A stretch of 64,000 nucleotides of DNA from an uncultured virus (IMG/VR IMGVR_UViG_3300048883_000321) (Duplodnaviria > Heunggongvirae > Uroviricota > Caudoviricetes), in the IMG/VR virus record IMGVR_UViG_3300048883_000321. One strand, 5' to 3'. Below the pieces are notes generated by a model. That model was not told where the DNA came from, searched no databases, and saw only the letters and a program-made list of their open reading frames with translations. Below are positions 37,019 to 64,000 of the stretch, piece by piece; position 1 is the first letter of the stretch; every line of letters starts with the position of its first letter. The position numbers were made by a program, and so were the translations under genes.

Positions 37019-37053
37019 TTAGATAGTTTCCCACATAATCACGCAGAAAACAG

Positions 37054-37263: not shown

Positions 37264-37475
37264 ATCCTATCCCCAACAATACTCAGATGGATACCAGCGT
37301 CCTTTACCCTGTGTTGTTTGACGGCTTCGTTTATCCGGTCGTCGCTCATAAGTCCTCTTCTCTGACGGGCTGGCCATACCATTCTTCGTCTGCCTGTTCA
37401 CGCAACATCTCTTTGTATCTCGTGAAAATGTACGTTTCCGCCGGGTCGTCGTCTTCCCACCAATCCGGTGTATTT

Positions 37476-38364: not shown

Positions 38365-38374
38365 CCCGGGAAAG

Positions 38375-38605: not shown

Positions 38606-38656
38606 GTCACCAGCATACCGGATCCCCCACCGAAAAGCCAGAGGACCCTAAACGCG

Positions 38657-38690
38657 AAGAAGTCGGGCCACCGAAGCGACCCGACTTCTT
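38657..38690 (-). terminator. Hairpin after the major capsid gene
   Basis: AAGAAGTCGGG...CCCGACTTCTT inverted repeat. Confidence 0.6.
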
Positions 38691-38727
38691 TAACGTCACC
38701 CCCACAAGGGAGGGTGCGTTTTACCGT

Positions 38728-39987
38728 TTAGATACCGGTGATCGTGCAGAACGACTCTGGGCGTTTCACGGCGAGAGCGATACGCTCTTCGGCGAGAATA
38801 GCCACTGCGTTCCGAACGAAGTAGTCGCTGTGCTGTTCGCTGACACGCACAGAGCCTTCCATCCGGTCGTACAAGGTAGCGCCAAGACCGAACGCACCAA
38901 CAAGAGCAGTGCCCTCGGTGATAGCGGACGATTCAACAACAGGCATCCGCCACATGCGGGCTTCAGCGCCAACGGCGATGGAAGCAGCCATCATGTAGTT
39001 GTTGTTGCCGTCTTTTTGCAACTCAATGGTTTCCCAGTCGTTCGGGTGAACGATGATACCGGTTGGTTCGTAGTAAGCAAGAAGTACCTTGGTGATACCT
39101 TTGCGTACTGCGTCGGTACGAGTGTCAGCACCCAATGCTTGGGTGTTGATACCGGAAGTTTGAGTGATACCGGTGAGGTTGGTGCCAGTGCCGTCACCGT
39201 TAAGGATTTGATCATCCTCGGTGAGACGCAAGCCGTACAACAACTCGTTGTCGATGATGCCACGCAAAGCGGCTTCGTCGTCAAGAGTGTTGCGATGGGC
39301 AACCTCGTAGTGTCCGATTGTACGGACCGGGGCTTGGGTGCCAGCAACAGTCAATGAAGACTGAGCCATCGAGGTGAACGCTTCAGGTGTGCCTGAGCGT
39401 TCCGACACGGTGGCGGAGTTGTTGGTGAACCCGGTGACCCGGAAGTATTCAATCAGGTTGGTACTGGTCTGTTGCACGTTGAACAAGTCACGAATGCGGC
39501 TCGTGCGATGCGCACGGTCTACAATAGCGTCACGCTGCGGGGTGCCAAACTGTGAAGGCGTTCCCGAAGGCAAAGTCGTGTACATGTCTTTTTGGTAATA
39601 CCCGCCGAGGTCGCCCTTGACGTTGAATGGGATGTGCATGGTGTAACCGCCACGGCCACCGTCGAGTGATTTAAACTCGTCGCTGTCGATGAAGGCTTGA
39701 CCTACGGAAGAAGCAACTGATTTGGATTCGATCATTGCTTCAGGAGCAGGTGCTTCCTGAGCCCAATCGGCCATTTCTTTTTGACCTTCCATCGTTTCGA
39801 TTTGCTCACGCAGGCCACGGGCCTTGGTGAGGTTCTCGCGAAACGAGGTCAAGTGTTTTGCTTCAACTTGAATATCGGGTCCGCCCTCTTCACGACCGGC
39901 CTCTGCGTGAGCAACGATTGAATCGTTGTCAGCGAGGGTGTCGCGGAGAGCAGACTTGAGTCCCTTAAGGTGGGAATCTACTGCCAT
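38728..39987 (-). CDS. Major capsid protein (HK97 fold)
   Basis: N-terminal delta coiled coil; EDDQILNGDGTG, VHPNDW, FVRNAVAILAEERIALAVKRPESF. Confidence 0.95.
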   Translation of the reverse strand: MAVDSHLKGLKSALRDTLADNDSIVAHAEAGREEGGPDIQVEAKHLTSFRENLTKARGLREQIETMEGQKEMADWAQEAPAPEAMIESKSVASSVGQAFIDSDEFKSLDGGRGGYTMHIPFNVKGDLGGYYQKDMYTTLPSGTPSQFGTPQRDAIVDRAHRTSRIRDLFNVQQTSTNLIEYFRVTGFTNNSATVSERSGTPEAFTSMAQSSLTVAGTQAPVRTIGHYEVAHRNTLDDEAALRGIIDNELLYGLRLTEDDQILNGDGTGTNLTGITQTSGINTQALGADTRTDAVRKGITKVLLAYYEPTGIIVHPNDWETIELQKDGNNNYMMAASIAVGAEARMWRMPVVESSAITEGTALVGAFGLGATLYDRMEGSVRVSEQHSDYFVRNAVAILAEERIALAVKRPESFCTITGI

Positions 39988-40103
39988 TGTTTTTACCTCT
40001 TAGTAAATAGTGGGTGTACTTATGTCTACAAGGTAAGCACCCTGCTGACCACCAGTCTTACATATAGAGAGTGTAAGCGTGTGACGGGGGTCACAAACCC
40101 GGT

Positions 40104-43481: not shown

Positions 43482-45848
43482 CTAGTCGTCTGCTGTTTCT
43501 TGGCCTGATGTAGCGGCCACAGATAAGGCTACAGCCCCAGCAACGATAGTGCCAACCTGAGAACCCAAACGAGCCGTCCGCAACGCAACAGGATCAATAT
43601 CAAACTCAGCAAGCGCACCAGTTACAGCCTTATCGGTAAACAGCATTGTGCAACGACAATTCACCGTCTCCTCAGCAGGAGCCGTCGGAGCCCCCGGATG
43701 CATCATCAGATTTCCGCCGACAACAAACGGATCCATCAACAAGCGAGCCTGCCCATCGGTATTCGTATGCGTATGCCGAACCTTCTCATCCTGAGACGAC
43801 AACCAAATCTTGTAACGCAACCCAGACTGAGAAGCCGCAATCAACTGGCCCTCATTAACAGCAAACGAAGCCTCCGTACGCCCAATAGTTCGAGCCCGGC
43901 TCTTCGTAGCGTTACCAAAAACATCCTCAATGTCGCTGGCGATATCGTCAACAGATTTACCGGACGCTAAACCCTTAGCGATAGATTTCTCCAACCGGCG
44001 GCGAGTCGTAGCGTTAATTTCTTTGACCCGTTCCAGCCCTGCGATAACCGCAGCAGCCACCAACCCGTCGTCAACATCAAACGATTTGCCAACCATTAAC
44101 GCCACATCGTTGCCGCCATCAACAAGCGCAGCGGCAAGGAATGAACGAGCGTCATCCGTTAACTGTTTATCCCATTTGATTTGATCGAAGATTTCACCAA
44201 CGGACACTGAATGCCCCTTGTTGATTTTCTCCCGCATCTTACGCGACTTCCATTTCTCCAACACAACTCGCCGTTGCCGTTGAAAAAACGCTGTCATTTG
44301 GATTGCTATCGAATCCTCAAGGCGAGCCAACTGTTGGTCTCTCCTCAACCGAGCAAGGTCGGCTTCTTTACTGTCAATCCATTGAGTCCCGAAGTGGAAG
44401 CCCCACTTCGTTTCGGATAAAGGGACCGCATCATCCGCTTTTGCTTCCTCGACTTCCTCAGATTTTCTAGGGACAACAGGCGCAGGGTTGCCTGTAGTCG
44501 AAGGAGGGCTAGTAGGCGACCCAGCGTCACGAGACGAAGATGCCGTAGGCGGTGTAACAGCCGGACCGGCTTGGCCACGAGGCATAACCTGAATCGGAAC
44601 CTTCTCAGGTTTACCATCCTCAGGAGCCTGCCCAACAGCCATCAAGTTGCCTTGAATAAACAAATGGTCAGCGCCAACACGTTCACGGCCAGTCAAAGCA
44701 CGGTACTCATCAATAGTGATACCACCGGCCGTCAACTCGCTCAAATGAAACGAAGCACGTTCCCGTTCATCACGAGACAAAATCGCTACATCGGACAAAT
44801 CAAACTTGACAGTCAAATCCTCAGACCCATCGATGCGATCCAACGCTCGTTCAATCAGCATCAAGTGAGGAAGCATCGTTTCCCGCCAGAACACTTCGAG
44901 TTCTGTATCGGCGTTAGCGAACGTAGAGTTCTTAGCGTTACCAACGACTGATTCGGGGACGCCGAACGCCATTAAGATTTCTTCTTTTGCTAATTGCTTA
45001 GCCTCAGAATATTGAGAGTCGCGATTCGTCACCGACGTATCGAAGTAAGCGGCATGCTCGGCTTCCATGATTGTTAACCGGCCAGCACCACCCAAAGCAG
45101 AACCAGTAGTGCCGAGAAAACGGCGACGCAACTCGTCTGCGCTATCGTCATCCATCTCACCTTTGACCATTAAAATACCGCCGGGGCGGCCATCGTTGAT
45201 CATGAAGTTTCGGTTAAAGACCCGAGAATAGTAGTCGATCTCAGTAGCGAGACCGCAAGACTCCAACGGGGACTGGCCGCGATACGGGTCAATCGGATGC
45301 GGGATACGAACCCAAATCACATTCTCCGCAGGGATGATCCTATCTTTCTGAGGATGCGGCATTTCGACTTTGAAACCCGACACGAATGTTTTCGCATCAG
45401 GAATCGGGTAAGTGTGCTGAGGCGGCAACAGGTGCAGCCCCGTGATTTCATCAAGACGGTTACGAACGACCTCAATGAATGCTCCACGTTTCGACAACAA
45501 GATTTGCGACGACAACTGGAACCGGAAATTGTAGGCATCGTGGTAGGGGTTCGCCATCCGGTTCAACACCGGAACTAAGAAATGGTTTCCTGACTCTGCC
45601 CCATCGGTGTCAGCGACGTAAGCCCGCAACCGTGCGGCGTTAGACGAAATAGCGTAAACGCTTTTATAAACCCAAGTAACACGATCATTGCCGTGCGATA
45701 CAGCCCGTTCGACATCCCAATCGTCTTTATATGGTTGGCCGGGAGCCCCACCGCTACTAGCGGTAAAGAACTGAGACTTGCGTCCGCTCATCCCTTCCCA
45801 ACCGTCTTTACCGTGTCCCTGAAATCGGAAACCTTCCAAAAAACCCAT
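43482..45848 (-). CDS. Portal protein fused to a MuF-like minor head domain
   Basis: HK97-type portal (NP, G.SPLE, PGGIL, AFGVP, TIDEYR); Pro/Ser linker; RARTIGRTE...KIW...DEKVRHTH...NCRC. Confidence 0.9.
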   Translation of the reverse strand: MGFLEGFRFQGHGKDGWEGMSGRKSQFFTASSGGAPGQPYKDDWDVERAVSHGNDRVTWVYKSVYAISSNAARLRAYVADTDGAESGNHFLVPVLNRMANPYHDAYNFRFQLSSQILLSKRGAFIEVVRNRLDEITGLHLLPPQHTYPIPDAKTFVSGFKVEMPHPQKDRIIPAENVIWVRIPHPIDPYRGQSPLESCGLATEIDYYSRVFNRNFMINDGRPGGILMVKGEMDDDSADELRRRFLGTTGSALGGAGRLTIMEAEHAAYFDTSVTNRDSQYSEAKQLAKEEILMAFGVPESVVGNAKNSTFANADTELEVFWRETMLPHLMLIERALDRIDGSEDLTVKFDLSDVAILSRDERERASFHLSELTAGGITIDEYRALTGRERVGADHLFIQGNLMAVGQAPEDGKPEKVPIQVMPRGQAGPAVTPPTASSSRDAGSPTSPPSTTGNPAPVVPRKSEEVEEAKADDAVPLSETKWGFHFGTQWIDSKEADLARLRRDQQLARLEDSIAIQMTAFFQRQRRVVLEKWKSRKMREKINKGHSVSVGEIFDQIKWDKQLTDDARSFLAAALVDGGNDVALMVGKSFDVDDGLVAAAVIAGLERVKEINATTRRRLEKSIAKGLASGKSVDDIASDIEDVFGNATKSRARTIGRTEASFAVNEGQLIAASQSGLRYKIWLSSQDEKVRHTHTNTDGQARLLMDPFVVGGNLMMHPGAPTAPAEETVNCRCTMLFTDKAVTGALAEFDIDPVALRTARLGSQVGTIVAGAVALSVAATSGQETADD

Positions 45849-53335: not shown

Positions 53336-53536
53336 TTACTCGAGGTGTTCGACATTGGCTTCGGTTTCGATCCATACTCTCGCCCCGCACTTATCAGGTG
53401 TGTCGGAGTGAACAATGATACAAGGCCCATCGATACGTACTTTTGACCAATGCGTAGAACCCTTATAGGTGCGGTCAATGATAGCAGGTTCGCCCTTTTT
53501 GATTTTTTGTTGGTGAACATGCAAAACATGTTTCAC
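53336..53536 (-). CDS. Small phage protein of unknown function
   Basis: HV.Q..I...V.I.GP...CGARVWIET; coupled to the endolysin stop. Confidence 0.65.
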   Translation of the reverse strand: MKHVLHVHQQKIKKGEPAIIDRTYKGSTHWSKVRIDGPCIIVHSDTPDKCGARVWIETEANVEHLE

Positions 53537-54249
53537 GCGTGTTTAGGGTTAAATAAGCGGCCCCAAGTTGTTTTACCAACAATGCCGTCGACGACAACAC
53601 GTTCAACGCGTTGAAACGCTTTAACCTGTTTACGGGTTTTACGGCCAAACACACCATCCGCAGCGCCAGCATCAAACCCCAAAGCACCCAAACGTTGCTG
53701 CAACACTTTCACCGCGTCACCGCGAGAACGATAACGCAACGCCTTACGAGCAACCTGACGGCCCAAAGCATCAACATACTCGCCGATCGCTTTCAAATCC
53801 TGCTTAGGTTCCTTCACAACCTCCCCATCCAACGCAGGCGCATCAAACCAGCCCCCCGAATTACGAGGCTGATGATGCCACCATTCCGAAGACACCGTCT
53901 TAACCAACCCATACTCAGCAGCCACATTATTGACCTCCCAAGTACGCAAACCCCCACCAGTAATCCGAAAATCCACAGCATAACAAAACCCGTCAGCCTG
54001 CTCCATATGGTAAGAACCCCGCCACCAACCACCATCACCATGACGACGATCAGGATTAGCAGCCAAATTCCCCTTACCAGCCTTATACAAATCGTAAAAA
54101 CGTTTCTGCTGCGCATACGAACGACAACCAGACACAACCTTCACCCGGCCCACAATCCGATCATCAGCAAAAAACGCTTCCAACCGGGCCACAAACCGCG
54201 GATGCAACAACGACAAATCAACACGAGAAGAAACAACAGGAATAGACAT
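53533..54249 (-). CDS. Endolysin: M15-type Zn peptidase plus peptidoglycan-binding domain
   Basis: SGCRS..QQ, SYH...AVD, EWWH; GDAVKVLQQRL...ADGVFG..T...VKAFQ...DGIVGKTTW. Confidence 0.9.
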   Translation of the reverse strand: MSIPVVSSRVDLSLLHPRFVARLEAFFADDRIVGRVKVVSGCRSYAQQKRFYDLYKAGKGNLAANPDRRHGDGGWWRGSYHMEQADGFCYAVDFRITGGGLRTWEVNNVAAEYGLVKTVSSEWWHHQPRNSGGWFDAPALDGEVVKEPKQDLKAIGEYVDALGRQVARKALRYRSRGDAVKVLQQRLGALGFDAGAADGVFGRKTRKQVKAFQRVERVVVDGIVGKTTWGRLFNPKHA

Positions 54250-54768
54250 ACCCCCACCATACCACAAACAACAAACCACCACCGGACACCCCCACAAAAC
54301 AACACCAAGTAAACAAACAGTTGACCCCAAAAAAAGGATTACAAAAATGCCGGGCCAACTAGACGCATGGGGGGAGGGGGGGGTACATACGTTCGACGCG
54401 ATGGGGGGTCACCCTTAGTGGTTTTGTGACCGCGGTTTGTGGTTTTGCTCTCTAAGCGTCGTATAGGCTCTCTAGGGCGTTTGGGTGCGTTTAGGTCATA
54501 AGTGCCCACGCGCACCCTAGAAACGCGTTAGGGCGGTTTCCCGTTGTTTTGGTGGGGGCTCTGGCGGTGGTAGTTGTTGGGGCTCTGTGGTGGCTAGTTG
54601 GTGGTGGTTTACCGTGAGAGCGACGCAGAGAGCCCCTAGAGCGACGCTAGGGGGCTAGGTGGGTCTTAGGTCATCTGGCACCACCGCGACGCCTTAGGTG
54701 GCCTATACGGGGCTCTAGGCGCGAAAGAGCCCCCACCGCGTACACGGTGGGGGTTCTAGCGTTGGTGG

Positions 54769-55125
54769 CTACCGCAGTAGCAAGTCTTCAAGGTCTACGC
54801 CCTCGGCGAGAATCTTAAAAACATCCGTCAGTACGGAGGGCTCTACCTCTGACCAGTCCAAAACATTTAGCGACCCGTCGTGGTCAGTAATGGCGGTCAT
54901 CATTGTGTGGTATCCCTCCACCGGATTGACCACCGCGGCGAAGTGTGTAGCACCATTAAAGCCAAACAATAACCAGTCGCCGGCATCACCAGCCGCGACC
55001 CGGATGCCGTAGTGGCCGAAGCCTGCCGGAGCGTCGACCATGACGAACCGCCGGACCGCGTCGCGTCCGTGGTGGTAGATTTGCGCGTCTGCCATCGCGT
55101 TGTAGTTTTTCTGTGTTGGGAACAT
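54769..55125 (-). CDS. Hypothetical protein
   Basis: AGAGGA RBS; followed by a terminator-like hairpin at about 54727-54756. Confidence 0.6.
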   Translation of the reverse strand: MFPTQKNYNAMADAQIYHHGRDAVRRFVMVDAPAGFGHYGIRVAAGDAGDWLLFGFNGATHFAAVVNPVEGYHTMMTAITDHDGSLNVLDWSEVEPSVLTDVFKILAEGVDLEDLLLR

Positions 55126-55243
55126 TGTTTTCCTCTTTCGTTGTTGGTTTAGTGGGAGTCTCCCACTTTCAAGCCACCACCACCGTTAGCGGTGGGGGCT
55201 TGAAAGTAGGCAGGGGCTTTCACCCCTGCCGACTCTCTAGCGG

Positions 55244-55624
55244 TCAGTCGTTGGTGGCCTCTAATGCTGCCGTAAAGGCTGCCCGCCGGTTGTCGCTGGT
55301 GCGCTTCGCACGTAGCAGGTAGTCGGTGTAGGTTCCCTTGCGTGTGCTGGCACGGTGGCTGCGGTCGTTGCCGTTGAAGCGCTCCTGAGCCGTTGCCCGA
55401 TTTAGTTTGCGAAAGTAAACGTTAGTGGCGTCGCTTTCGGCTTTCATGCTTTCGGTGGTTACCGACTCTTTCACCGTTGCGTTGCGCAGAGCGTCAACGG
55501 CCAGAAAGTGAGTGAACGGTAATACTGAGTAGTACACGAAGTCGGGAACCATGCTAGATACTACTGCGGATCCGAGAGGGGCAGTGACTGCCTCGCTTTC
55601 GGCTGGTGGTGTGTGGTTGAACAT
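55244..55624 (-). CDS. Hypothetical protein
   Basis: AAAGG RBS and a TTGTAC/TAATAAT promoter-like sequence upstream. Confidence 0.6.
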   Translation of the reverse strand: MFNHTPPAESEAVTAPLGSAVVSSMVPDFVYYSVLPFTHFLAVDALRNATVKESVTTESMKAESDATNVYFRKLNRATAQERFNGNDRSHRASTRKGTYTDYLLRAKRTSDNRRAAFTAALEATND

Positions 55625-55784
55625 TTGGTGCCTTTCGTTTGGTTGCCGTTGTTAGCAACAAGCGTATTATTACAAACATTAAGGGTATGTACAACTACCC
55701 GTTGACCTTACCCCGCGACAGAACCCGACTTTCCCCTTTGTTTGTATAGCAAAAAACTTTCCAAACTTTCTCAGAATCAGAGCC

Positions 55785-55925
55785 CAAAAACAGCCCATAA
55801 CCAAAAACACACCCCAAAAACTACCCAAAAAAAACACCCCAAAAACACCCCAAAAACACCCCAAAAAAACACCCCAAAAACTGCCACGCCGCGACCCCAA
55901 AAACTGCCACGCCGCGACCCCACCG
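55785..55925. repeat. Phased C-run/A-tract repeats followed by a 23-bp direct repeat
   Basis: CCCCAAAAA(AA)CA units at 11-14 bp spacing; CCCCAAAAACTGCCACGCCGCGA twice. Confidence 0.8.
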
Positions 55926-56152
55926 CGGCGCGGCGTTCACCGTTGCGCAACGTCAGAACCCGCGCCACCTATTCCCAATAACGCACCACTAACGGGAAAC
56001 GCTAAGAGTGACCGACTGACCACCTAGAGCGTTAACGCTAAGAGTGACCGACCGAACGCCGAGAGTGAACCCTAACCCTAAACCTGAGGTTGAGGGTTCA
56101 CCCGAGCGCGTGGGCGCGTGTGCGTGTGCGCGCAAGCGGAGACGCGAACCCA

Positions 56153-56310
56153 CGTGTGAATCTGGCGGGTGAATCTGGCGGGTGAATCTCGCGGGTGAAT
56201 CTTGGCGTGTGAATCTCACGTGTCAATCTTGGCGTGTCAATCTTTGATGTGTGAATACCTCCGGGAATAGACTGAATACGTGTGAATTTGAGACCTCACG
56301 GGTGAATCTC
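56153..56310 (+). repeat. Tandem 13-14 bp repeats of CG(T/G)GTGAATCT
   Basis: About 10 copies here; further dispersed copies up to 63713. Confidence 0.85.
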
Positions 56311-56395
56311 ACTGAGGCTACCGGCCGGGGCCGACACCAAACTCTCAACCTCTACTTGAGGGTTACAGTTCGCAAGGGCCGGGGCGATTCCAAAA

Positions 56396-56411
56396 TCGAA
56401 CAGGTGTTCGG
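56396..56411. promoter_or_regulatory. LexA (SOS) box, Gram-positive/actinobacterial type
   Basis: TCGAACAGGTGTTCGG versus consensus TCGAAC-N4-GTTCGA. Confidence 0.7.
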
Positions 56412-56516
56412 TCTCGCTATTGTTGCTAAAATCCCGTTTCGGCCATTATAGGTTTCGCCACCCCCGGGGCCACCTCGCATACCCCGAGAGCCGAAGCCCC
56501 CGGGGTTGCGGTGTTC

Positions 56517-56774
56517 CTAGTCCGTTAAGACCATAACTTGAAGGCCGACCGAGCCGGAGAACTCGCCGGTTGTCCGGGTGGAGTCAGACCAGAAGTGAAC
56601 GTCAACGTCGTCGCCGACCAAATCGGTGGTCAAGACCATGACGAACTCGCCGCCTCGGAAGCGTACTTGGGTGTCACCTAAGAAGAAGCGGTTGCCTCCG
56701 GGGCCCATTGGCCACTCGTTGAGAACCCTGTCGGTTGCTACCAAGTCTGCGAGTTTTTTGAGTGTTACTTTCAT
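56517..56774 (-). CDS. Early-type mini gene
   Basis: AAGGAG RBS; has its own promoter module. Confidence 0.7.
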   Translation of the reverse strand: MKVTLKKLADLVATDRVLNEWPMGPGGNRFFLGDTQVRFRGGEFVMVLTTDLVGDDVDVHFWSDSTRTTGEFSGSVGLQVMVLTD

Positions 56775-56808
56775 GTTTGCTCCTTTGTTGTTGTTTGCTT
56801 ATAGGTTT

Positions 56809-56873
56809 AGTATACACTAGGGAACCCCCATGCGCAACCTTTCGGTAAAGATTTCTTTGTGACTTTTGTCACA
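56809..56873 (-). promoter_or_regulatory. Promoter module: TGTGA-N6-TCACA site, 20 nt, TTGCGC-N17-TATACT
   Basis: Read directly; prototype of the repeated module. Confidence 0.8.
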
Positions 56874-56944
56874 GCCGGGGCCGACTCGAGCCCCCCGGGG
56901 CCGACGACAAAAAAAGACGGGAGCCGAAGCCCCCGCCTTGGATT

Positions 56945-57055
56945 TTATTTTGTGGCCTTTGGCTTACCGCCTCGGCGATTGAAGTTGCCTGCGCCTCCGA
57001 CGAACTTGGTCGGTGGGCGTTTGTGGGAGCGAGCCCGTCCTTGATATGCTTTCAT
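56945..57055 (-). CDS. 36-aa basic peptide
   Basis: MKAYQGRARSHKRPPTKFVGGAGNFNRRGGKPKATK; AAGGAGG RBS; TTGCTT-N17-TACACT promoter. Confidence 0.6.
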   Translation of the reverse strand: MKAYQGRARSHKRPPTKFVGGAGNFNRRGGKPKATK

Positions 57056-57175
57056 TGTGCCTCCTTGGCGTAGTTGCTTACAAAGTAAGTGTATCAAAGG
57101 GAACAACCAGAAGCAACCTCAACCGGAAACTTTCTTAGATTTCTTTTAAGTTCCCAGCCGGGGCCGAAATCCGTA

Positions 57176-57240
57176 TGTGACACATGTCACAAAGAAATCT
57201 TTGCTTTGGGGTTGCGCATGATGGTTATCTCTGCTATACT
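57176..57240 (+). promoter_or_regulatory. Promoter module: TGTGACACATGTCACA, 20 nt, TTGCGC-N17-TATACT
   Basis: Read directly. Confidence 0.8.
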
Positions 57241-57277
57241 TACACTTGTAAGCAACCAACGGCAAAGGAGCCAAATC

Positions 57278-57376
57278 ATGGAATGCGAAGACTGCGAAGA
57301 ATACGAAGAAGATTGTACCTGCGGAGACCGACCCGCCCCATGGGACACCCGAGGCGAAGCCAACGGAGACCGATAG
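57278..57376 (+). CDS. 32-aa acidic Cys-rich peptide
   Basis: MECEDCEEYEEDCTCGDRPAPWDTRGEANGDR; AAGGAG RBS; downstream GAAA-loop hairpin. Confidence 0.6.
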   Translation: MECEDCEEYEEDCTCGDRPAPWDTRGEANGDR

Positions 57377-57659
57377 CCACCAGCGAGCCTGCCCCGAAAG
57401 GGGCGGGCTTCAGGCCCCGGTAGTACCTCCGGGGCACAAACGCGTGTGAATCCCATCGTGTGAAAACAAGCCAGCGATGCGGCAGCGACGAAAAGGTCGG
57501 GCGTGAATATACCCGGTAGTACTCCGGGGCGGTGGCGTGTGGTTTCGTCGATGAAGCCATTGTAGCGTGGCCTACCCTGAAACCCAACCTTACCCGAATC
57601 TTTTCTTTTTCGCCTGCTAGGTTAAAGAACGGTTCTATTAAGGTTATATTACGGTTCAT

Positions 57660-57746
57660 GGTTCAAAGCCTGAACCTGCTGCCGGTTCAAAGCCTGAACC
57701 TGCTGCCGTGTCAGAGCCTGAACCTGCTGCCGGTTCACAGTGAACC
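57660..57746. repeat. Three 24-bp tandem repeats carrying the palindrome GGTTCA-N5-TGAACC
   Basis: GGTTCAAAGCCTGAACCTGCTGCC twice, one variant and one partial copy. Confidence 0.85.
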
Positions 57747-57892
57747 TAAACACCAGTTGACCTTATCCGCTATCTCCGGGGCTTCGTAGGGTCAGAGTGA
57801 ACCTACAAGGGCTCCGGTAATACTCCGGGGCCTTTGTGCGTAAATCGGTTGGGCCGGGCCGAGGGCCGAAGCCCCCAGCCTCTAGCCGTTGG

Positions 57893-58051
57893 TTAGCGGA
57901 CTGCTTTTTTGAGTGCGTCCTTTTGGGCATCCGTCCAAACGTTGCCGTCAAGGTCGGTGAGGGTCCACCGGTCGTTATGAACGTCGGCCCTAGCCAACTG
58001 GTACGCAACTCCCGCTGCCCATGGGTCTAGGTTTATAAGTAGGTCGTTCAT
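57893..58051 (-). CDS. 52-aa mini gene
   Basis: MNDLLINLDPWAAGVAYQLARAD...; RBS and promoter module with site at 58133-58148. Confidence 0.65.
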   Translation of the reverse strand: MNDLLINLDPWAAGVAYQLARADVHNDRWTLTDLDGNVWTDAQKDALKKAVR

Positions 58052-58263
58052 GTTTGCTCCTTTGTTGTTTGTTTGATAAGGTTAGTATAGCACAGGTAAC
58101 CACCAGAAGCAACCCCGAAACAAAGATTTCTTTGTGACTTTTGTCACACCACAAGCGGCACCCCCCGGGGCTTGACAGGTGAAACGGCCACCAGCCCGTT
58201 TAAGGACTGGTGGCCGGAGCCGGGGGAGGGAAAGGAGGTAACCTCTCCCGCCTCTATTTTGGT

Positions 58264-58410
58264 CTAGCGGATTGGCGAGAAGTTTAGTTCCTCGATTATT
58301 CCGACGAGTTCTTCTTGTTTGGTGACCATTTCTTCGCTTGCTTCGGCGAGGGCTCGGTTGGTTGCCATCATTTTACGGAAGGCGATTTCGGTTGGGTGGT
58401 CCGGGTTCAT
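58264..58410 (-). CDS. 48-aa mini gene
   Basis: MNPDHPTEIAFRKMM...; RBS and promoter module with site at 58498-58513. Confidence 0.65.
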   Translation of the reverse strand: MNPDHPTEIAFRKMMATNRALAEASEEMVTKQEELVGIIEELNFSPIR

Positions 58411-58552
58411 GTCTTGCTCCTGTTCGTGTGTTGTTTGCTTATAGGTTTAGTATACACCAAGGGATGCCCGAAAGCAACCCCTAGAGGAAGATTTCTTTGT
58501 GACACCTGTCACAGCACCTCGGGCCGGGGCCGAAGCCCCAACCCGCTGACCG

Positions 58553-58780
58553 CTAGAGCAAGCCCAACTCACGGCAGACAACGAAGCGCCCATCGGCCAT
58601 GCGCCGACTTGACCAGCAAGCCACGCCGTCGCCCTCCACATGAGCCCATGTGGCATTTATGGCGTTTTGAGAAGTACGCTCTACCTTAAAAAGTTCGGTT
58701 CGCATGAGTAGTGCGAGGGTAGCGTTATGACGGATAGCGTCAAGGATTTCGATTTTCATGTTTGGCTTTTCGTTGTTCAT
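58553..58780 (-). CDS. Mini gene
   Basis: AAGGAG RBS; module site at 58862-58877. Confidence 0.55.
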   Translation of the reverse strand: MNNEKPNMKIEILDAIRHNATLALLMRTELFKVERTSQNAINATWAHVEGDGVACWSSRRMADGRFVVCRELGLL

Positions 58781-58935
58781 TTTTGCTCCTTTGTAGTTTG
58801 CTTGATAGTTGTATTATAGTGGGACTAAAGCCCATAACCAACCTCTAACTTAAAGTTTCTTTGTGACATCTGGCACAGGGGCCGGGGCCGCGGTTCGGCT
58901 GGCCGACTCGGTTAGGAGCCGACCAGCCGAGGGGT

Positions 58936-59070
58936 TTAGCCCGCCAGCAATACTATGCCGACGAAAAACGAGCAGTTAACTAGGACGTAAAGCCCAACGA
59001 TAACCCTTGCTTTAGGGTAACCCTGTTGGAACTGTTCGGCTAGGTTTTCTAGTGCCGTTGATAGGTTCAT
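58936..59070 (-). CDS. 44-aa single-TM peptide
   Basis: RBS; module site at 59153-59168; hydrophobic C-terminus. Confidence 0.6.
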   Translation of the reverse strand: MNLSTALENLAEQFQQGYPKARVIVGLYVLVNCSFFVGIVLLAG

Positions 59071-59286
59071 GTTTTCTCCTTTCCTCCTTGTTGGTATACC
59101 TTTAGTATACACCATAAGGTAGGCAAAAGCAACCCCTAGAGGAAGATTTCTTTGTGACATTTGTCACAGGGGCCGGGCCGCGTCAACCCTCAACCTCTAC
59201 TAGAGGGTTAGGGTTCCGCCCCAACCCAATCCGGCCGCGTGTGACATAAGTCACATGTGACACATGACCACCAACCCGGCCGAGGG

Positions 59287-59481
59287 TTACATCACGACCT
59301 TTAAGATTTGGACTGGCACGTGACGGAAAATGGTAGGGTTGATGCTGCCGGTGGGTGCTGCCGTGGTGATTACCTTGCCGTTGATTTCTACGATTTCAAG
59401 CAGTTCAAAACCGGTGGGTACGGTGATGGCTACAACGTCCCCGATTACTAGGTGCTTGGTGTAGGTGTTGGTTAGTTTCAT
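59287..59481 (-). CDS. Mini gene
   Basis: AAGGAG RBS; TTGCGG-N18-TAGTAT promoter. Confidence 0.6.
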   Translation of the reverse strand: MKLTNTYTKHLVIGDVVAITVPTGFELLEIVEINGKVITTAAPTGSINPTIFRHVPVQILKVVM

Positions 59482-59686
59482 TTTGGCTCCTTTGCCGTTG
59501 CTTCGTTAACCCCATACTATCGTTGTTTTACCCAATACCGCAACCTCAAACTAAAACTTTTCTAGATTTCTTTTCGGGGGCGAACGTGTGTTCTGTCGCG
59601 CTCCCGGCATTACCTCCGGGCCTTTTCTCGGGGGGATTCGGTGGGCTGGTTTGGCGGTAGCCCATTGACTACCGCCACCCTGCCCG

Positions 59687-59944
59687 CTATGGGGTCTCAA
59701 CGGCAAACAGCACGTATGTGTGCCCTTGGCCGTCCCCTATGTACTTAAAGCCGTCAAGGTCGGCGTGGTCGTAGCGTACGACCTGTACGCCCTTGTAACG
59801 GTCTAAGCGTCCGCCATAGGTAAAGTGGTCGCACATGTTGCCGACCCGTGTACCGGTGACCGGATGGTGGTCAACAAAAATGTCGTATTCAATGTTTTCA
59901 CCTCCGTTGATAAAGGTGTGGTGAATCATGGCTAGGTCTTTCAT
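59687..59944 (-). CDS. Mini gene
   Basis: AAGGAGG RBS. Confidence 0.6.
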   Translation of the reverse strand: MKDLAMIHHTFINGGENIEYDIFVDHHPVTGTRVGNMCDHFTYGGRLDRYKGVQVVRYDHADLDGFKYIGDGQGHTYVLFAVETP

Positions 59945-60630
59945 GGTGCCTCCTTAAGGCTTGGGCTACTTGCCCTCCCCCATAACGATACAGGGTAAAC
60001 CAACGATTGACGAGGCTAGACAACCATTCATTTTGGTCATAAGTCACACGGCCAGCGGAGAGTGGTCAATCGGTCACAAATAGCGGTCAAAAAGTGCTTT
60101 ATTTTCGAAGCCACCATTTGCCCTCTAAGACGTTTTCAGCCGATTTATGGGTGGTAGTCCCATAACGACCTTTAACCGCATACGCGGGCTATACGTGGCT
60201 CTGAGGGGATTCGCCTTTTATCACTCTTTGTGACCAAACGACCACTCTGAGTGAAGCCGGGGGCGCGCTGAAAATGCCACAGAGAGCGGTGGAGCGACCA
60301 CAAATAGTGACGGGAAAACCGCTTGTTTTCGAAGCCACCATTTGCTCCCTACGGCGTTTCTAGGGCGCGCGTGGGGGGTTGTGTCGTATTCGGCCTAAAC
60401 CGCTTAGGTGGCCTATACGGGGCTCTGAGGGGAAACCCAAAAAAAGCGGCCTCCGGTTCTTATCCCCCGGGGCTCATGTGTAAATCTCACTCTGCGTGGC
60501 GGGTTGACCACTTTCCGCAGGCGAATGGTCAGGCGTCACATTTATGATAAATCTTGATTTTGGGGGTGCGAAGGTTGTTATTTTTGATAGACTCACTCTT
60601 GTAAGCAACTATCACCAAGGAGGTGAAAAA

Positions 60631-61011
60631 ATGATAACCATTCAACACAACACGAATCGGAAAAGTGACGGTAAGCCTCTCCAAGCAATGGGGATGCGCG
60701 CTAGTTTTCTCAAGTACTTGGAGGACGCGGTGAAAGCCGTAGCCACCGAGGGACTGAGCCCACTAGCGGCACTCCGTCCACTTGGCACGATTTACGCTTG
60801 GGCTGGGGCGAAAGTCACCATCCACGTGGCACGGGTTCATGGAGATGTCTACCGCATCTCTTGGAGCCGTCCAGCGGGGCGTGGAGGCATCGCCACCGGC
60901 ACCAAGACCGTGGAGCGGGTAGCCACCATACGGTGCGCCACCAACCCTTTGGAGTTCCTCACGAACATCGTGGAGCATCCCGAGGGCTTGGACATTGAGC
61001 CCGTCGGTTAA
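60631..61011 (+). CDS. Hypothetical protein, paralog of 62881-63267
   Basis: AAGGAGGTG RBS; shares the HN..RKSDGKP..A.G.RAS and Y..SW.RPAGR motifs. Confidence 0.75.
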   Translation: MITIQHNTNRKSDGKPLQAMGMRASFLKYLEDAVKAVATEGLSPLAALRPLGTIYAWAGAKVTIHVARVHGDVYRISWSRPAGRGGIATGTKTVERVATIRCATNPLEFLTNIVEHPEGLDIEPVG

Positions 61012-61281
61012 TCGGCAGGGGGTCGGCCCGAAAGGGTCGGCTCCCACCGGGCCCCCGGCAGTACCTCCGGGTTGCGTTCGTGTGAATCTGTGGGCGTGTG
61101 AATCCCGTATGCTCCCGGTTCTGCCCTAGACTGTATACGTGTGAATTTGGCCTCCGGTTACCCCGGGGTGCATAGGGGCGTGTGAATGGGCGTGTGAATC
61201 CTTACGCGACAGTTCCGCCCGGCTGGGGGGCAGGGCGGAACTGGAGCAGGCAGAGGCGAAAGGAGGGAAAGCCCCCGCCCG

Positions 61282-61757
61282 CTATGGCTTAGTATACAGG
61301 GTGCCGTCGCTCATCCTGAGGAGGATGGGCTGGCCATCTTCGCTGAAAATGATTTCCTCGGTGGTTGGTGCCCCGGGGTCGTTCATCCATGTGATGGCTT
61401 CTAGGGCTAGTGCGAAAGTGATAACCCCGGCGATGATGACGGCCGCGGCCATGACCCGGTCGCCCGCCCCCATTACAGTGCCCCGCATTCACGGAGTGCT
61501 GACAGGTCAACGCTTTTCCATTCGGATGGGCGGGTGCCGTTCATGAGTGGGTGGACTTTGGTTGCGGTTTTCATGGAGGCATTGACGACGATGCCGGAGT
61601 GGCCGTTGGTGGTGGGCCAGATGTAGCAGATGTCGCCACCGTTGTAGGTGAATGCCTTCATGTCTTTGTGGGTGTTAAGCCATTGGCGGGCATCGTCTAG
61701 ACTGCCGAATGAGTACCGTGGCCGATTGTAGGCTAGGTCGTGGGTTATTGTTTTCAT
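61282..61757 (-). other. Two coupled mini genes (61473-61757; 61282-about 61473, single-TM)
   Basis: RBS and TG-TATAAT promoter with site at 61826-61841. Confidence 0.55.
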
Positions 61758-61961
61758 GTTTGCTCCTTGTAGTTGGTTATAGAGTCATTATACATGGTGG
61801 AGGGTGGGCTTGCTACCCTATTTGGTGTGGCATCCGTCACATCTCCCCCGGGGCTCCGTGTGTGTGACGAATGTCACAGAGAAACTTTGGGTCAGAGGTT
61901 GCGTTATGGTGGTTACCTCCGCTATACTGGGGTTATGACAAGGAGGGAGGAGGTGAAAAAA

Positions 61962-62174
61962 ATGATAATCAAAAAAGACTACATCATACTTTGGGAAACC
62001 TCAGAGGGCGAACTTGCTGCCGAAGAGGCACCAAACGCCACCGTAAGCGAGTTGGAGTTCCTCATAGAACACCCGCTAGTTACCGGCGACCGCATCAAAG
62101 AGGACACCGTGAAGGTGTTTGAACTGGGCGAACAGGTCTGGTACGGCACCGGCGCACCGCCAGTGCGCATTTAG
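61962..62174 (+). CDS. Acidic mini gene
   Basis: GGAGGTG RBS; module TGTGACGAATGTCACA (61863-61878), 20 nt, TTGCGT-N18-TATACT. Confidence 0.65.
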   Translation: MIIKKDYIILWETSEGELAAEEAPNATVSELEFLIEHPLVTGDRIKEDTVKVFELGEQVWYGTGAPPVRI

Positions 62175-62367
62175 GCCACAGGGTCGGCTCCCTCACCGGG
62201 AGTCGGCCCACCGGGCCTCCGGTTACCCCGGTTGCGAGCAGGTGTGGAAAGCCGCGTGTGAATCTGGGCTCCCGGGCCTGAATAGACTGAATACGTGTGA
62301 ATTTGGGCTCCCGGGCGGGTAGCCAAGAGCCCCACCCCCAAGGAGGGGAGGGGTGGGGCGAGGTTGG

Positions 62368-62517
62368 CTATCGGGTGATGCCGAAGGCGATGTCCATTAT
62401 GGCTGCCAGTTCGGGGAGAGGGTTCCCGGCCTTGGCGTACCGTTCGGCAGCGTCTTGGATGGCAGCATCTTCTTTCTCTGCCTTGACGTAGTCCGATGGG
62501 TCTGGTTCGTAGGTCAT
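62368..62517 (-). CDS. 49-aa mini gene
   Basis: AAAGGA RBS; module site at 62600-62615. Confidence 0.6.
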   Translation of the reverse strand: MTYEPDPSDYVKAEKEDAAIQDAAERYAKAGNPLPELAAIMDIAFGITR

Positions 62518-62705
62518 GTGTTTTCCTTTCGTGTAGTTGGTGTTACCTTTATTATACAGGCTGGGAACCCAATACCAACCCCGAAACAAAGATTTCTTTT
62601 GTGCCATGCGTCACACGACACCCCCGGGCCAGCGCAACCCTCAACCTCTACTTTAGGGTTAGGGTTCACGGCGGGCAGAACTCCCGGCCGGGGCGCGGAG
62701 CAAAA

Positions 62706-62785
62706 TGTGACGGATGTCACATGTGACAAATGACCGCTGTGACACATGACCGGTGTGACAAATGACCGCTGTGACGTATGGCACA
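62706..62785. repeat. Head-to-tail array of five 16-bp TGTGAC-type sites
   Basis: TGTGACGGATGTCACA TGTGACAAATGACCGC TGTGACACATGACCGG TGTGACAAATGACCGC TGTGACGTATGGCACA. Confidence 0.9.
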
Positions 62786-62880
62786 TGGATTCGCCCGGCC
62801 ACCTCCGGCTATCTCCGGCGGGAATCTCGCGGGTGGTTTGGTGGGGGAGGGTGACCGCTCACGGCCACCCTCCCGAACTG

Positions 62881-63267
62881 CTAGATAACCTCGATTTCTA
62901 TCGCGGTTGGTTGGTTTTCAATGTCGGCGAAGTAGCCGATAAGGTCGGTAGCGGTGTTGACCGTGACCGAGCGGACGATTTCCGCTTTGCCCATAGCGTC
63001 GCTGTAGGTGTTCTTGCGACCTGCGGGGCGTATCCATGACACGCTGTACCGGTCGGCACCTATGCGGGTGATGGATGCGAAGCAGACAGCGCCTGCGAAG
63101 AAAGAGAACCACGAACCTTGACGGTTATGGTTGACGGGGCGAACTACTTTCTCGCCGAGCCCTTTAGACAGTTGGTCAAGACTCGCTATTAGCGAAGCAC
63201 GTTGACCGGCTGCTTTCATGGGCTTGCCGTCGCTCTTCCTTTCTTTGTTGTGGGTGAGTGTTGCCAT
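62881..63267 (-). CDS. Hypothetical protein, paralog of 60631-61011
   Basis: AGGAGG RBS; collinear similarity over the full length. Confidence 0.75.
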   Translation of the reverse strand: MATLTHNKERKSDGKPMKAAGQRASLIASLDQLSKGLGEKVVRPVNHNRQGSWFSFFAGAVCFASITRIGADRYSVSWIRPAGRKNTYSDAMGKAEIVRSVTVNTATDLIGYFADIENQPTAIEIEVI

Positions 63268-63563
63268 GGGTGAACCTCCTAGGTTCGGGTTCAAGGTGTT
63301 TCCTTGATAAATACCATGCTAGAGGTTGCGTACCCAAAAATGACAGATTGTGACGGATGCCACACAACAATCTTAGAGTGGTCAAGCCACCACTTAGAGC
63401 GCACAAAAAAACGCTCATTTCTGAAGCCACCATTTGCCCCATGTGGCGTTTCTAGGTCACCGGTGGGGGATAGGGTCATTATAGGGGTCAAAGCCCACAG
63501 CGGGCTTGTGTGTGGCTGTGAGGGGAAACGCTGGGAGTGGTTAGAAGAACGCTCTAAGCGAAG

Positions 63564-63593
63564 CGAACAGGTGTTCGCCGAACGTGTGTTCGA
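63564..63593. promoter_or_regulatory. Two tandem LexA (SOS) boxes
   Basis: CGAACAGGTGTTCG and CGAACGTGTGTTCGA, 1 nt apart. Confidence 0.75.
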
Positions 63594-63833
63594 GCCCAAA
63601 AAACGCCTCCGGTACTCCCGGTTGCATTGGCGGGGGGATTCTGGCGTGTGAATCCTCCGGTGGCCCCTCCGGTGGCCCTCCCGGTTTATGTTACGACTTT
63701 ACACGTGTGAATCTGCCCCCGGGTGTGGTGTGTCAGATGTCACAAAGAAAACTTTGGGGGAGGTTGGTTCTTGGGAGTTTGGGGTGTATGCTTACGGCTG
63801 TAAGGCAAGTCAACCAACTACGAAAGAGAAAAC

Positions 63834-64000
63834 ATGAAACTGATTCAAGTTCAAGACGGGAGCCAAATGCTTTTGGTTCATCTGATTCATTGCGCTGCCG
63901 ACGCAACCAACAGCACAGAGCGGGAACTGACAACGGTAACCATGTCATGCGCCATGCTTGAACGTTTGGTTCGGGATGCTCAAGAAGCCGCCGGAGAGTT
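63834..64000 (+). CDS. Mini gene, truncated by the window end
   Basis: MKLIQVQDGSQMLLVHLIHC...; module site at 63729-63744 with TTGGTT-N17-TATGCT. Confidence 0.55.
   Translation, partial: MKLIQVQDGSQMLLVHLIHCAADATNSTERELTTVTMSCAMLERLVRDAQEAAGE

Follow-up and report, generated by a model that had tools for sequence, protein, structure and literature searches.

A putative early-gene cassette array with palindrome promoters and strand-polar words in an uncultured tailed phage

Introduction

Phages house their anti-host and anti-defence genes, nearly all of them ORFans, in early hyperplastic regions. The host-takeover module of SPO1 and the pre-early (first-step-transfer) region of T5 are examples of early regions in which many small early genes occupy about 10 kb, together with repeated noncoding DNA. 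Here we analyse positions 54400 to 64000 of a 64-kb stretch of DNA (the window) from an uncultured virus (IMG/VR record IMGVR_UViG_3300048883_000321; Caudoviricetes), where small genes, repeated promoter modules and short words confined to one strand form an array. With a probability of about 60%, we read this array as a hyperplastic region of early or anti-defence cassettes, like the promoter-early stem-loop (PeSL) regions of T4-type phages, in which palindromes resembling CRP sites mark the promoters and the strand-polar words overlie the cassettes.

Several described systems offer points of comparison. Stoperators, the repeated sites of cluster A mycobacteriophages, are oriented by the direction of transcription. 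PeSL cassettes, according to two reports, mediate modular shuffling of ORFans in T4-type phages (PMC2839356, PMC4122927). For regulators, a passage of PMC10187061 gives the CAP consensus as TGTGA-N6-TCACA, with class I sites whose distance upstream of the -35 element varies, and a passage of PMC9380542 gives tCGAAC-N4-GNNCGa as the sequence bound by Streptomyces LexA. Finally, consensus sites for nicks in one strand are described for T5, phiKMV-like phages and tf in part of PMC3517423.

Small genes and a shared promoter module

The array holds 18 candidate small open reading frames (ORFs) of 32 to 128 amino acids (aa) between 54769 and 64000, 14 on the minus strand and 4 on the plus strand; the one starting at 63834 is still open at the window end. 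A Shine-Dalgarno-like match of 4 to 8 nt precedes 16 of the 18 (the ORF at 61282-61488 has none). All 16 flanks that were folded carry a GC-rich stem-loop within 70 nt of the stop codon, with z scores of -1.5 to -7.5 against mononucleotide shuffles. These hairpins have a stem of 9 to 13 bp, often a GAAA or TTCG loop, and mostly no T tract. A generic scan for T-tract terminators was not significantly enriched (19 found versus 13.4 +/- 4.0 in shuffles). None of the 17 array proteins scanned matched a Pfam or PHROG profile. An earlier note, made from the sequence alone, had described about 18 tiny genes in both orientations, most with regulatory elements of their own, and the ORF, Shine-Dalgarno and hairpin counts bear this out.

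Nine cassettes share one promoter design, each palindrome being oriented to its gene. A TGTGAC-N4-GTCACA palindrome is followed by 20 nt (beginning AAGAAATCTT), TTGNNN within GGTTGCG/T, a spacer of 17 to 18 nt, and TATAMT (TATACT, TATAAT or TATGCT as the -10 hexamer); about 25 to 30 nt farther on come AAGGAG and then ATG. In all nine of these canonical modules, the centre of the palindrome is 28 bp from the -35 hexamer. Three further cassettes have variant arrangements (at 61826, at 63349 and at the leftward promoter beside 57176). A repeat search listed 43 direct-repeat families, of which D1, D2 and D6 are promoter modules, 60 to 100% identical over 31 to 106 nt, and D8 and D9 likewise support repeated modules. 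Two micro-ORFs, 56945-57055 and 57278-57376, face one another across a single palindrome.

Allowing one mismatch, the palindrome occurs 15 times in the window versus 0.11 expected. Fourteen sites (8 exact, 6 with one mismatch) fall within 56858-63744, and the fifteenth, a perfect TGTGACGGGGGTCACA at 40080-40095, is the only one outside the array. The major capsid gene (start at 39987, minus strand) begins about 90 nt downstream of this site, so a late promoter may also be reached by the same factor.

If the -10 hexamer spans -12 to -7, with transcription starts thus assumed, the palindrome in the shared module would be centred near -63.5, an activator-like position on one helical face upstream of the -35. 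A host CRP-type protein or a phage protein could bind it. In relatives (described below), the palindrome again stands upstream of promoters of the form GAGGTTGY-N17-TATAnT, and the distances from its centre to the -35 cluster at 28 bp (10 cases, mostly from the window) and at 17 to 18 bp (4 cases), one helical turn apart. The words GAGGTTG (132 copies) and AGAAATCT (67 copies) each occur in 14 to 26 of 49 sequences, depending on the strand counted; by our own arithmetic, this is about 4 and about 8 times the random expectation.

The array also carries SOS-like boxes, whose core, CGAAC-N4-GTTCG, occurs three times in the window (at 56397, 63564 and 63579) versus 0.21 expected. Across 50 related loci, which hold 46 such boxes, the SOS-like box is usually the full T-CGAAC-N4-GTTCG-A, and it often heads a fixed order of one or more boxes, then CCTCCGG, then GTGTGAATYT. 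Boxes with a promoter nearby are centred 35 to 36 bp (9 cases) or 42 to 63 bp upstream of the -35, and no box-to-promoter distance that we found places the box over the -35 or -10 hexamer. Helical phasing of these boxes with the palindromes was considered and dropped, since 35 to 36 bp and 28 bp are not one helical turn apart.

The earlier note had likened the two palindromic motifs to CRP/GlxR and LexA sites, and they do match those consensus sequences letter for letter, as given in passages of PMC10187061 and PMC9380542. From this likeness it is tempting to view the region, as that note did, as a decoy or sponge, whose replicated operator-like sites titrate host CRP-type and LexA-type regulators and RNA polymerase and so rewire host transcription, with no need for them to control any gene of the phage. 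Beyond the exact matches, a sponge would suit the tandem TGTGAC arrays away from promoters (59240-59269 and 62706-62785), which recur in three relatives (L292, L300 and L317), and the SOS-like boxes that lie around -71 or in spacers with no promoter, positions from which a repressor would leave RNA polymerase unblocked. However, 9 of the 14 array palindromes stand at one fixed promoter distance, which argues for regulation in cis; overlapping half-sites 7 to 16 bp apart cannot all hold dimers simultaneously; and there are just 3 to 5 SOS-like boxes per genome. Many copies are indeed tandem and away from promoters, as the note said, and the main palindromes keep to one activator-like distance, as in ordinary regulation in cis. 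Titration is possible but improbable, being unsupported by the findings and not required by them.

Conservation in relatives and cassette turnover

One relative came from two IMG/VR contigs: G001, of 61.5 kb, found through a capsid anchor and with a capsid 78% identical to that of the window, and G006, found by a pattern scan. Their overlaps at both ends are 99.99% identical, so they represent one phage with a closed map of about 86 kb; IMG/VR classes both as linear, without end repeats. Gene order matches that of the window, and the relative's array lies between the endolysin and the homologs of window positions 134-2262. From this gene order, the window array most likely continues past 64000 toward the window-start sequence. 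When the array end of G001 (its first 8 kb) was compared with the window by blastn, just 55 nt aligned. The motifs are there all the same. With the G006 contig set in the same orientation as the window (g6r), all 21 copies of the word GTGTGAAT (longer form GTGTGAATYT) are on the plus strand, 19 of them in the array. It has four CGAAC-N4-GTTCG boxes, two of which are 15 bp apart, exactly the spacing of those at 63564 and 63579 in the window, and CTCCGG is found 47 times on the plus and twice on the minus strand of the array (12-24 kb), versus 0 and 4 times in the remaining 52 kb.

A composite pattern, CCTCCGG-N4-30-GTGTGAAT-N4-12-GTGTGAAT, recovered 51 stretches from a metagenome collection and only 6 matches from 596 Gb of species-representative genomes, a number judged near the chance level; one of the six is a true array, on a 13-kb contig of a metagenome-assembled genome (MAG) that we call L330. 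The resulting family set consists of 50 metagenome loci (269.6 kb, two pairs overlapping, GC content 0.43 to 0.65), which hold 56 TGTGAC-N4-GTCACA palindromes in addition to the 46 boxes. One window gene product, the 36-aa peptide encoded at 56945-57055, is 69% identical in L292 and L300. Among 140 loci reached through anchors (59 capsid, 80 endolysin, 1 genome stretch), none had three copies of GTGTGAAT or two TGTGAC palindromes, and two had two CGAAC boxes; the endolysin does not mark this phage family, and most capsid-anchored loci probably end before they reach the array. One candidate (G005, locus L001) was rejected, as its five TGTGAC-type palindromes (2 exact, 3 with one mismatch) come with no other motif and no similarity to the window.

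Contigs of four sequencing runs were compared with the array at a likeness of at least 80%, and one run, X11, contains a diverged strain. An X11 contig (2708 nt, depth 8) joins 57824 to 58165 and 58487 to 58852 and thus lacks 57825-58164 and 58488-58851. Each join drops one gene (57893-58051 and 58553-58780, respectively) together with its regulatory module, and the breakpoints lie in CCGGGGC repeats and in a repeated AAG(A/T)TTTCTTTGTGAC element. This loss of cassettes in a natural variant shows a route by which early genes are exchanged.

Could the similarity among spacers reflect only recent tandem duplication of one cassette, with motifs that have no function? The window promoter modules are alike over as much as 106 nt, and cassettes do recombine. 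However, the motifs remain in places where the DNA around them has ceased to align, as in the G001/G006 phage, and they keep a strict polarity across 50 loci that span the full range of GC content given above. In the X11 strain, both changes listed in the SOS-like box at 63564-63577 (63570 and 63572) fall in the N4 spacer, among the 40 of 348 differences listed. Motif conservation despite ORF turnover, which the earlier note had proposed as a check, is thus strongly positive, and the neutral duplication that it named as able to overturn its reading is excluded by the unalignable relative, the motifs of g6r and the 50-locus counts. We give this explanation a negligible chance.

Words confined to one strand

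The word GTGTGAAT occurs 14 times in the window versus 2.13 expected, always on the plus strand and always within 56154-63712. The count of CCTCCGG (12 versus 8.5 expected) is not above chance, yet all 12 copies are on the plus strand, within 56258-63672. CCGG-N6-8-CCGG has 10 sites in the region versus 3 outside, and AACCCTCAACCT has 3 sites in the window. These counts revise the motif families of the earlier note: TGTGAC, CGAAC and GTGTGAAT are far above chance, CCGG-N6-8-CCGG is better described as the strand-polar 7-mer CCTCCGG, and GGTTCA-N5-TGAACC comes down to two sites in one tandem repeat (57660-57737), which is not enriched in relatives.

Across the 50 family loci, GTGTGAAT is found 367 times on the plus strand and never on the minus strand, CCTCCGG 339 and 21 times, and TCCGG 1177 and 211 times; the loci were oriented by the query pattern, whose own requirements account for 100 of the 367 GTGTGAAT and 50 of the 339 CCTCCGG copies. 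When the arrays of the window and the relative were compared by k-mers with strand taken into account, two shared word families stood out, GTGTGAAT(C/T)T and CCTCCGG(T/G). The extended consensus of the first is R-C-GTGTGAAT-Y-T-G-G, and neighbouring copies are mostly 12 to 14 bp apart (106 pairs). Wherever a motif-oriented locus has homologs of window 134-2262 (g6r, L309, L293, L316, L282 and L312), they are on the same strand as in the window, so the polarity is fixed to the genome backbone. In agreement, GTGTGAAT is on the plus strand beside leftward and rightward genes alike. The two words can occur apart, because a 6.4-kb locus (L275, from G007) has 11 copies of GTGTGAAT on one strand and two TGTGAC palindromes, with no CCTCCGG. 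A literature search for the words returned only primers and unrelated uses, and no paper treating them as a phage element.

The shorter word TCCGG also enters genes. Inside leftward ORFs it occurs on the plus strand in all three codon frames (269, 221 and 187 copies, from crude ORF calls), so its bias is not an amino-acid effect. Among confident genes (at least 40 aa, with a Shine-Dalgarno match of 5 to 7 nt), the 192 leftward ones (54.3 kb) have 5.21 copies per kb of sense CCGGA and 0.70 of sense TCCGG, versus 0.88 and 0.69 in the 83 rightward ones (26.0 kb). The relative's late leftward genes hold only 2 plus-strand TCCGG in about 52 kb, versus 19 of the opposite word. TCCGG is thus enriched in intergenic clusters and leftward early genes, neutral in rightward array genes and avoided in late genes, a distribution that fits neither a pure DNA signal nor a simple tag on all early mRNAs. 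As a separate observation on the whole G006 contig, CCGG occurs about once per kb outside the array versus 102 times in the 12 kb inside; the relative's genome avoids CCGG except where the polar word is used.

One alternative reading takes the words as a polar signal in the DNA of a first-entering or exposed arm, either Chi-like protection from helicase-nucleases or the sites of a strand-specific nickase. The strand bias of both words, an orientation tied to the backbone rather than to neighbouring genes, the presence of TCCGG in all three frames of leftward ORFs and its near absence from the plus strand outside the relative's array would all suit such a signal. A consensus for nicks in one strand is also known, the phiKMV-group version of which ends in CTCCGG according to part of PMC3517423. 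However, a pure DNA signal should be independent of gene direction, and rightward array genes are not enriched, their sense TCCGG standing at 0.69 per kb against 5.21 for the complementary word in leftward genes. In addition, known nick sites are far sparser than the roughly 5 sites per kb seen here, and the contigs behave as circular or permuted. Overall, we find a DNA-level signal rather unlikely.

Alternatively, the word may be read in RNA. CCGGA(G)(G) in leftward early mRNAs would then mark them for a sequence-specific RNase or an RNA-binding protein, and late mRNAs would be purged of it; in T4, RegB cleaves GGAG in early mRNAs. The excess of sense CCGGA in leftward over rightward genes and its scarcity in the relative's late leftward genes agree with this, and 47 of 68 copies in g6r extend to CCGGAG. 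Against a tag are the dense intergenic clusters upstream of promoters or behind terminators, which may be untranscribed, and the few copies (3) within the window's own genes. Further, the Pfam and PHROG scans of proteins gave no RNase candidate, and a tag would leave GTGTGAAT unexplained. This, too, appears improbable.

A third possibility is a replication origin with dispersed iterons, in which the 890-bp block 55625-56516 would be the lytic origin and the GTGTGAATYT clusters secondary initiator sites, comparable to the ori/crr octamers of P4. The block has a fitting anatomy: A-tracts in phase, a tandem run of 10 GTGAATCT units of 13 bp, hairpins and an SOS-like box. As for the GTGTGAATYT repeats, they are direct, share one orientation and follow one another at 12 to 14 bp, and the phage encodes an HTH_36/DnaD_N-like protein (14586-15257, 4.4e-14), SSB and an SNF2 helicase. 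On the other hand, at least 5 clusters over 8 to 13 kb per genome would be unusual for an origin, no AT-rich unwinding element was identified, and the turn in cumulative GC skew at about 54 to 56 kb coincides with a change in motif content and hence is not independent evidence. We consider an origin unlikely. Within the same block, the phased CACCCCAAAAA repeats at 55801-55922 suggest bent DNA, and CACCCCAAAAA is strand-polar in relatives as well (10 to 0 in 6 loci).

A broader idea, which we hold only tentatively, is that phages of a widespread uncultured marine family carry a strand-polar code in their early arm, made of iteron-like GTGTGAATYT repeats and CCTCCGG/TCCGG and often headed, in a fixed order, by SOS- and CRP-type palindromes. 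Such a code could act as a directional DNA or RNA signal that protects or guides first-entering DNA or tags early transcripts, while the palindromes would couple expression to the cAMP and DNA-damage state of the host. To our knowledge, no such system has been described before.

A conserved array protein

The 126-aa protein encoded at 60631-61011 is the only array protein conserved across the family. It has a paralog in the window (62881-63267, 34% identical), and the protein family is present in at least 22 family loci, often twice and in either orientation. A TGTGAC or TCGAAC palindrome often lies 90 to 160 nt upstream of the start codon. In the clade of g6r, TCGAAC is upstream in all five loci (g6r, L278, L296, L306 and L313), and six other genes have TGTGAC. 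A one-to-one pairing of paralog clades with palindrome types was looked for and not seen, as many genes have neither.

The AlphaFold2 model, built from a 13-sequence alignment, is confident (pLDDT 86.2, pTM 0.79) and has a helix packed on an antiparallel sheet. It gave no match to a solved fold (best Foldseek E value against the PDB 0.26; best Z score 3.5 in a wide VIA-align search). The protein likewise gave no Pfam or PHROG match, no PDB sequence match at E values up to 10 and no usable ESM Atlas match, and peptide patterns found no relative in the viral contig collection. We regard it as a candidate binder of one of the array motifs.

Genome setting and feature map

The window is phage DNA, in which PHROG profiles name five minus-strand genes (Table 1). 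The array begins directly past the start of the endolysin gene, upstream of a long leftward gene block. The portal is 36 to 40% identical to portals of 83- to 93-kb Gordonia and Brevibacterium phages, the closest cultured phages, which have actinobacterial hosts. Runs containing array DNA are labelled as hydrothermal-vent and marine metagenomes, and all were kept as contigs; no RNA run was among those listed. We conclude that this is an uncultured, siphovirus-like tailed phage from marine or hydrothermal-vent settings. A near-identity search with 54400-64000 and 20000-40000 against 50,697 deposited phage genomes (INPHARED) gave no match, and the last 39 bases of the window had none in the viral contig collection. 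Within the 64-kb window, no tRNA gene was found and no lysogeny module is visible. At E values up to 1, the only Rfam match was to Atu_C7 at 62324-62442 (21 bits versus a gathering score of 45), which we treat as chance.

Which host does this phage infect? Weak hints of a Gram-positive or actinobacterial host come from the relatives of its portal, the type of its SOS-like box and its T-less terminators. One label points elsewhere, as the L330 contig was binned in a MAG labelled Gemmatimonadetes, but it is too weak to name a host.

The relative's array adds genes with recognizable domains. That of G006 encodes an ArdC-like antirestriction protein with a zincin peptidase domain (ArdcN, 6.8e-25; MPTase-PolyVal, 5.2e-38), as well as an HNH endonuclease and DUF3846, DUF6891 and GP88-family proteins. 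Such genes are in keeping with an early anti-defence region, and the antirestriction gene in particular agrees with a host-takeover or anti-defence role.

In the window array, a noncoding unit of about 150 to 220 nt recurs, with cores TTTTCGAAGCCACCATTTGCCC and CTATACGGGGCTCTGAGGGGAAAC; no copy was found in relatives, and the unit may serve as a binding platform or be a small RNA. Elsewhere in the window, two adjacent large proteins encoded in 6490-9395 have ParB N-terminal domains, one of them two such domains. The pair adjoins a methyltransferase (5175-5939) and a 2OG-Fe(II) oxygenase (2259-2801), and the group might be a DNA-modification or DNA-binding module; we make no link from it to the array motifs. 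Besides the HTH_36/DnaD_N-like protein, the window encodes HTH proteins at 12609-12896 and 9395-9664.

Table 1. Coordinates of phage genes and array features in the window, with one gene from a relative
Feature	Position	Strand	Remarks
Large terminase	3243-4571	-	PHROG profile
Tape-measure protein	21349-25629	-	PHROG profile
Major capsid protein	38728-39987	-	PHROG profile
Portal	43482-45848	-	PHROG profile
Endolysin	53533-54330	-	PHROG profile
Leftward ORFan, 118 aa	54769-55125	-	Followed by hairpin; no Pfam/PHROG match
Leftward ORFan, 126 aa	55244-55624	-	Followed by hairpin; no Pfam/PHROG match
Own promoter of these two leftmost ORFans	~55625-55700		No palindrome
Large noncoding block	55780-56516	+	Repeats, hairpins, SOS-like box
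Phased CACCCCAAAAA repeats	55801-55922		Period 11-13 bp
AACCCT..AGGGTT hairpins (two)	56069-56099, 56340-56365
Tandem (G/C)GTGAATCT units (10)	56147-56317		13-nt period
SOS-like box TCGAACAGGTGTTCGG	56396-56411
Cassette, 85 aa	56517-56774	-
Its palindrome promoter module	56775-56873
Cassette, 36-aa very basic peptide	56945-57055	-
Palindrome TGTGACACATGTCACA	57176-57191	+	Followed by promoter
32-aa Cys- and acid-rich ORF	57278-57376	+	Followed by double hairpin
Polar cluster B	57417-57530	+	CCTCCGG hairpins, GTGTGAATC, degenerate copies
24-bp tandem repeat, x3.2	57660-57737		Contains GGTTCA-N5-TGAACC
Four leftward cassettes	57893-58051, 58264-58410, 58553-58780, 58936-59070	-	Palindromes start at 58133, 58498, 58862, 59153; TATAMT spacing 17 nt
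AACCCTCAACCTCTAC..AGGGTTAGGGTT hairpin	59185-59215		Between cassettes
Tandem TGTGAC array	59240-59269		Between cassettes
Cassette, 64 aa	59287-59481	-
Near-SOS box CGAACGTGTGTTCt	59581-59594		Upstream of promoter of 59287-59481
Cassette, 85 aa	59687-59944	-
Noncoding repeat unit, ~150-220 nt, two copies	60030-60486		Third copy 63346-63578; partial copy 54560-54770
126-aa protein gene	60631-61011	+	Paralog 62881-63267 (-)
Polar cluster C	61050-61202	+	2 CCTCCGG, 5 GTGTGAAT
ORFs with promoter (two)	61282-61488, 61473-61757	-	Palindrome TGTGGCATCCGTCACA at 61826-61841
Palindrome promoter module	61863-61961	+
70-aa ORF	61962-62174	+
Polar cluster D	62216-62311	+	CCTCCGG, 2 GTGTGAAT, conserved TAGACTGAATACGTGTGAATTTG unit
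49-aa ORF	62368-62517	-
Palindrome promoter module	62518-62615	-
AACCCT hairpin	62636-62666
Tandem TGTGACAAATGACCGC array, 16 bp x3.4	62706-62785
Paralog of 126-aa protein, 128 aa	62881-63267	-	Palindrome TGTGACGGATGCCACA upstream at 63349-63364
Polar super-module	63563-64000	+	In order: SOS-like boxes, polar words, promoter module, ORF
Super-module: two adjacent SOS-like boxes	63563-63593	+
Super-module: CCTCCGG and GTGTGAATC repeats	63606-63712	+
Super-module: palindrome promoter module	63729-63833	+
Super-module: ORF	63834-64000	+	Open at window end
ArdC-like gene (relative)	L273:6303-7208	+ (of locus)	11 plus-strand TCCGG words inside

Discussion

How might such an array work? We propose that it is an early-gene arm, set between the start of the leftward structural and replication block, at the endolysin, and the far end of that block. 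Its roughly 18 mini-cassettes would each consist of the shared promoter module, a Shine-Dalgarno site, an ORFan of 32 to 128 aa and a GC-rich hairpin terminator. The standard early promoter would be TTGNNN-N17/18-TATAMT, with the palindrome 28 bp upstream of its -35 in an activator-type position. A dimeric factor, either a host protein of the cAMP-receptor type or a phage protein, could bind the palindrome and switch the cassettes on together. SOS-like boxes, (T)CGAAC-N4-GTTCG(A), and tandem TGTGAC arrays may be further sites of the same regulatory layer. The repeated regulatory modules would double as recombination sites, allowing the gain and loss of entire cassettes. Lastly, the polar words could be an array of sites bound by a factor that the phage encodes, a signal with polarity in DNA or RNA that goes with the leftward early transcription units, or both.

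Several observations weigh against this proposal. A scan with the sigma-70 consensus gave 6 sites versus 4.4 +/- 2.0 in shuffles, so the strong promoters claimed in the earlier note were not borne out by this generic scan; the promoters are of a family-specific type, (G)GTTGC/G-N17-TATACT, with a weak -35 match. In relatives, a scorable promoter is near only 22 of 100 palindrome sides. The operator is not universal in the family, as the G001/G006 phage has just one TGTGAC palindrome, and some of its promoters bear a TCGAAC box instead, 35 to 36 bp from centre to -35. Cassette loss was seen in one contig of one run, at a likeness of at least 80%. In the window, TCCGG is only weakly enriched and almost only intergenic (20 plus-strand copies in 54.4-64 kb, 3 of them in genes). 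The polar words have no constant position relative to promoters, which makes a purely transcription-regulatory role insufficient. Finally, early timing and promoter use are both things that we infer.

In an uncultured marine phage family, the shared promoter module offers a way to approach the co-regulation of early ORFans. The array also reveals conserved cis-elements with absolute strand polarity, in the case of GTGTGAAT, across phages of 43 to 65% GC. If it is true that host CRP- and LexA-type regulators read the palindromes, these lytic-looking phages would sense the metabolic and damage state of the host at the first step of infection. Should the polar words turn out to be a directional signal in DNA or RNA, they would add a new kind of feature to those known from phage genomes.

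Comparison with known systems

The early regions of SPO1 and T5 resemble the array in scale and makeup: some 10 kb containing numerous small early genes, promoters of their own, much repeated noncoding DNA, and anti-host or anti-defence content, for which the ArdC-like gene of the relative is a counterpart. They differ in that their proteins show no homology to those of the array, and we know of no strand-polar word system in them.

For the words, two systems come to mind. Cluster A stoperators are likewise short asymmetric sites, many per genome and intergenic, as described in parts of PMC6550527 and PMC9283540. The array words differ from them in keeping the same orientation whichever way neighbouring genes run and in forming tandem clusters of 2 to 10 copies, and no repressor was identified. 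One-strand nick sites are also confined to one strand, and in the relevant part of PMC3517423 CTCCGG forms the end of the phiKMV-group consensus, while TGTGAC is found within that of tf. However, nick sites number 4 to 14 per genome, compared with tens of array words per 10 kb, and the longer nick consensus is absent from the array; the match of letters may be a coincidence.

The palindromes compare with regulator sites. Class I sites of CRP/CAP and GlxR share the TGTGA-N6-TCACA core (per a passage of PMC10187061), and the array site, too, is centred upstream of the -35 on one helical face, in two distance classes 10 bp apart. In contrast, the array sites also conserve the 6th and 11th bases (TGTGAC..GTCACA), their estimated centre is 2 bp off the classical -61.5, and tandem half-site arrays accompany them. 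The SOS-like boxes share with actinobacterial and Gram-positive LexA boxes a 16-bp palindrome with identical arms and, in most family copies, the flanking T and A (per a passage of PMC9380542). LexA-repressed operators overlap the promoter, whereas the array boxes lie mostly off the -35 and -10 hexamers, near -71 or heading CCTCCGG/GTGTGAAT clusters; they are often tandem pairs or triplets, in a phage for which the window shows no lysogeny module.

The PeSL regions of T4-type phages are the nearest likeness. They differ from the array in phage type, as this phage is siphovirus-like, and its portal is only 36 to 40% identical to those of the closest cultured phages. The array promoter also carries a fixed upstream palindrome of 16 bp, SOS-like boxes and two strictly strand-polar word families are added, and its promoters and terminators are predictions. 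Nonetheless, in both systems a repeated composite of sigma-70-like early promoter and stem-loop terminator flanks small non-essential ORFans (according to PMC2839356 and PMC4122927), the cassettes are gathered in a variable stretch bordered by conserved core genes, and indels between close relatives break within repeats, as the single X11 contig does here.

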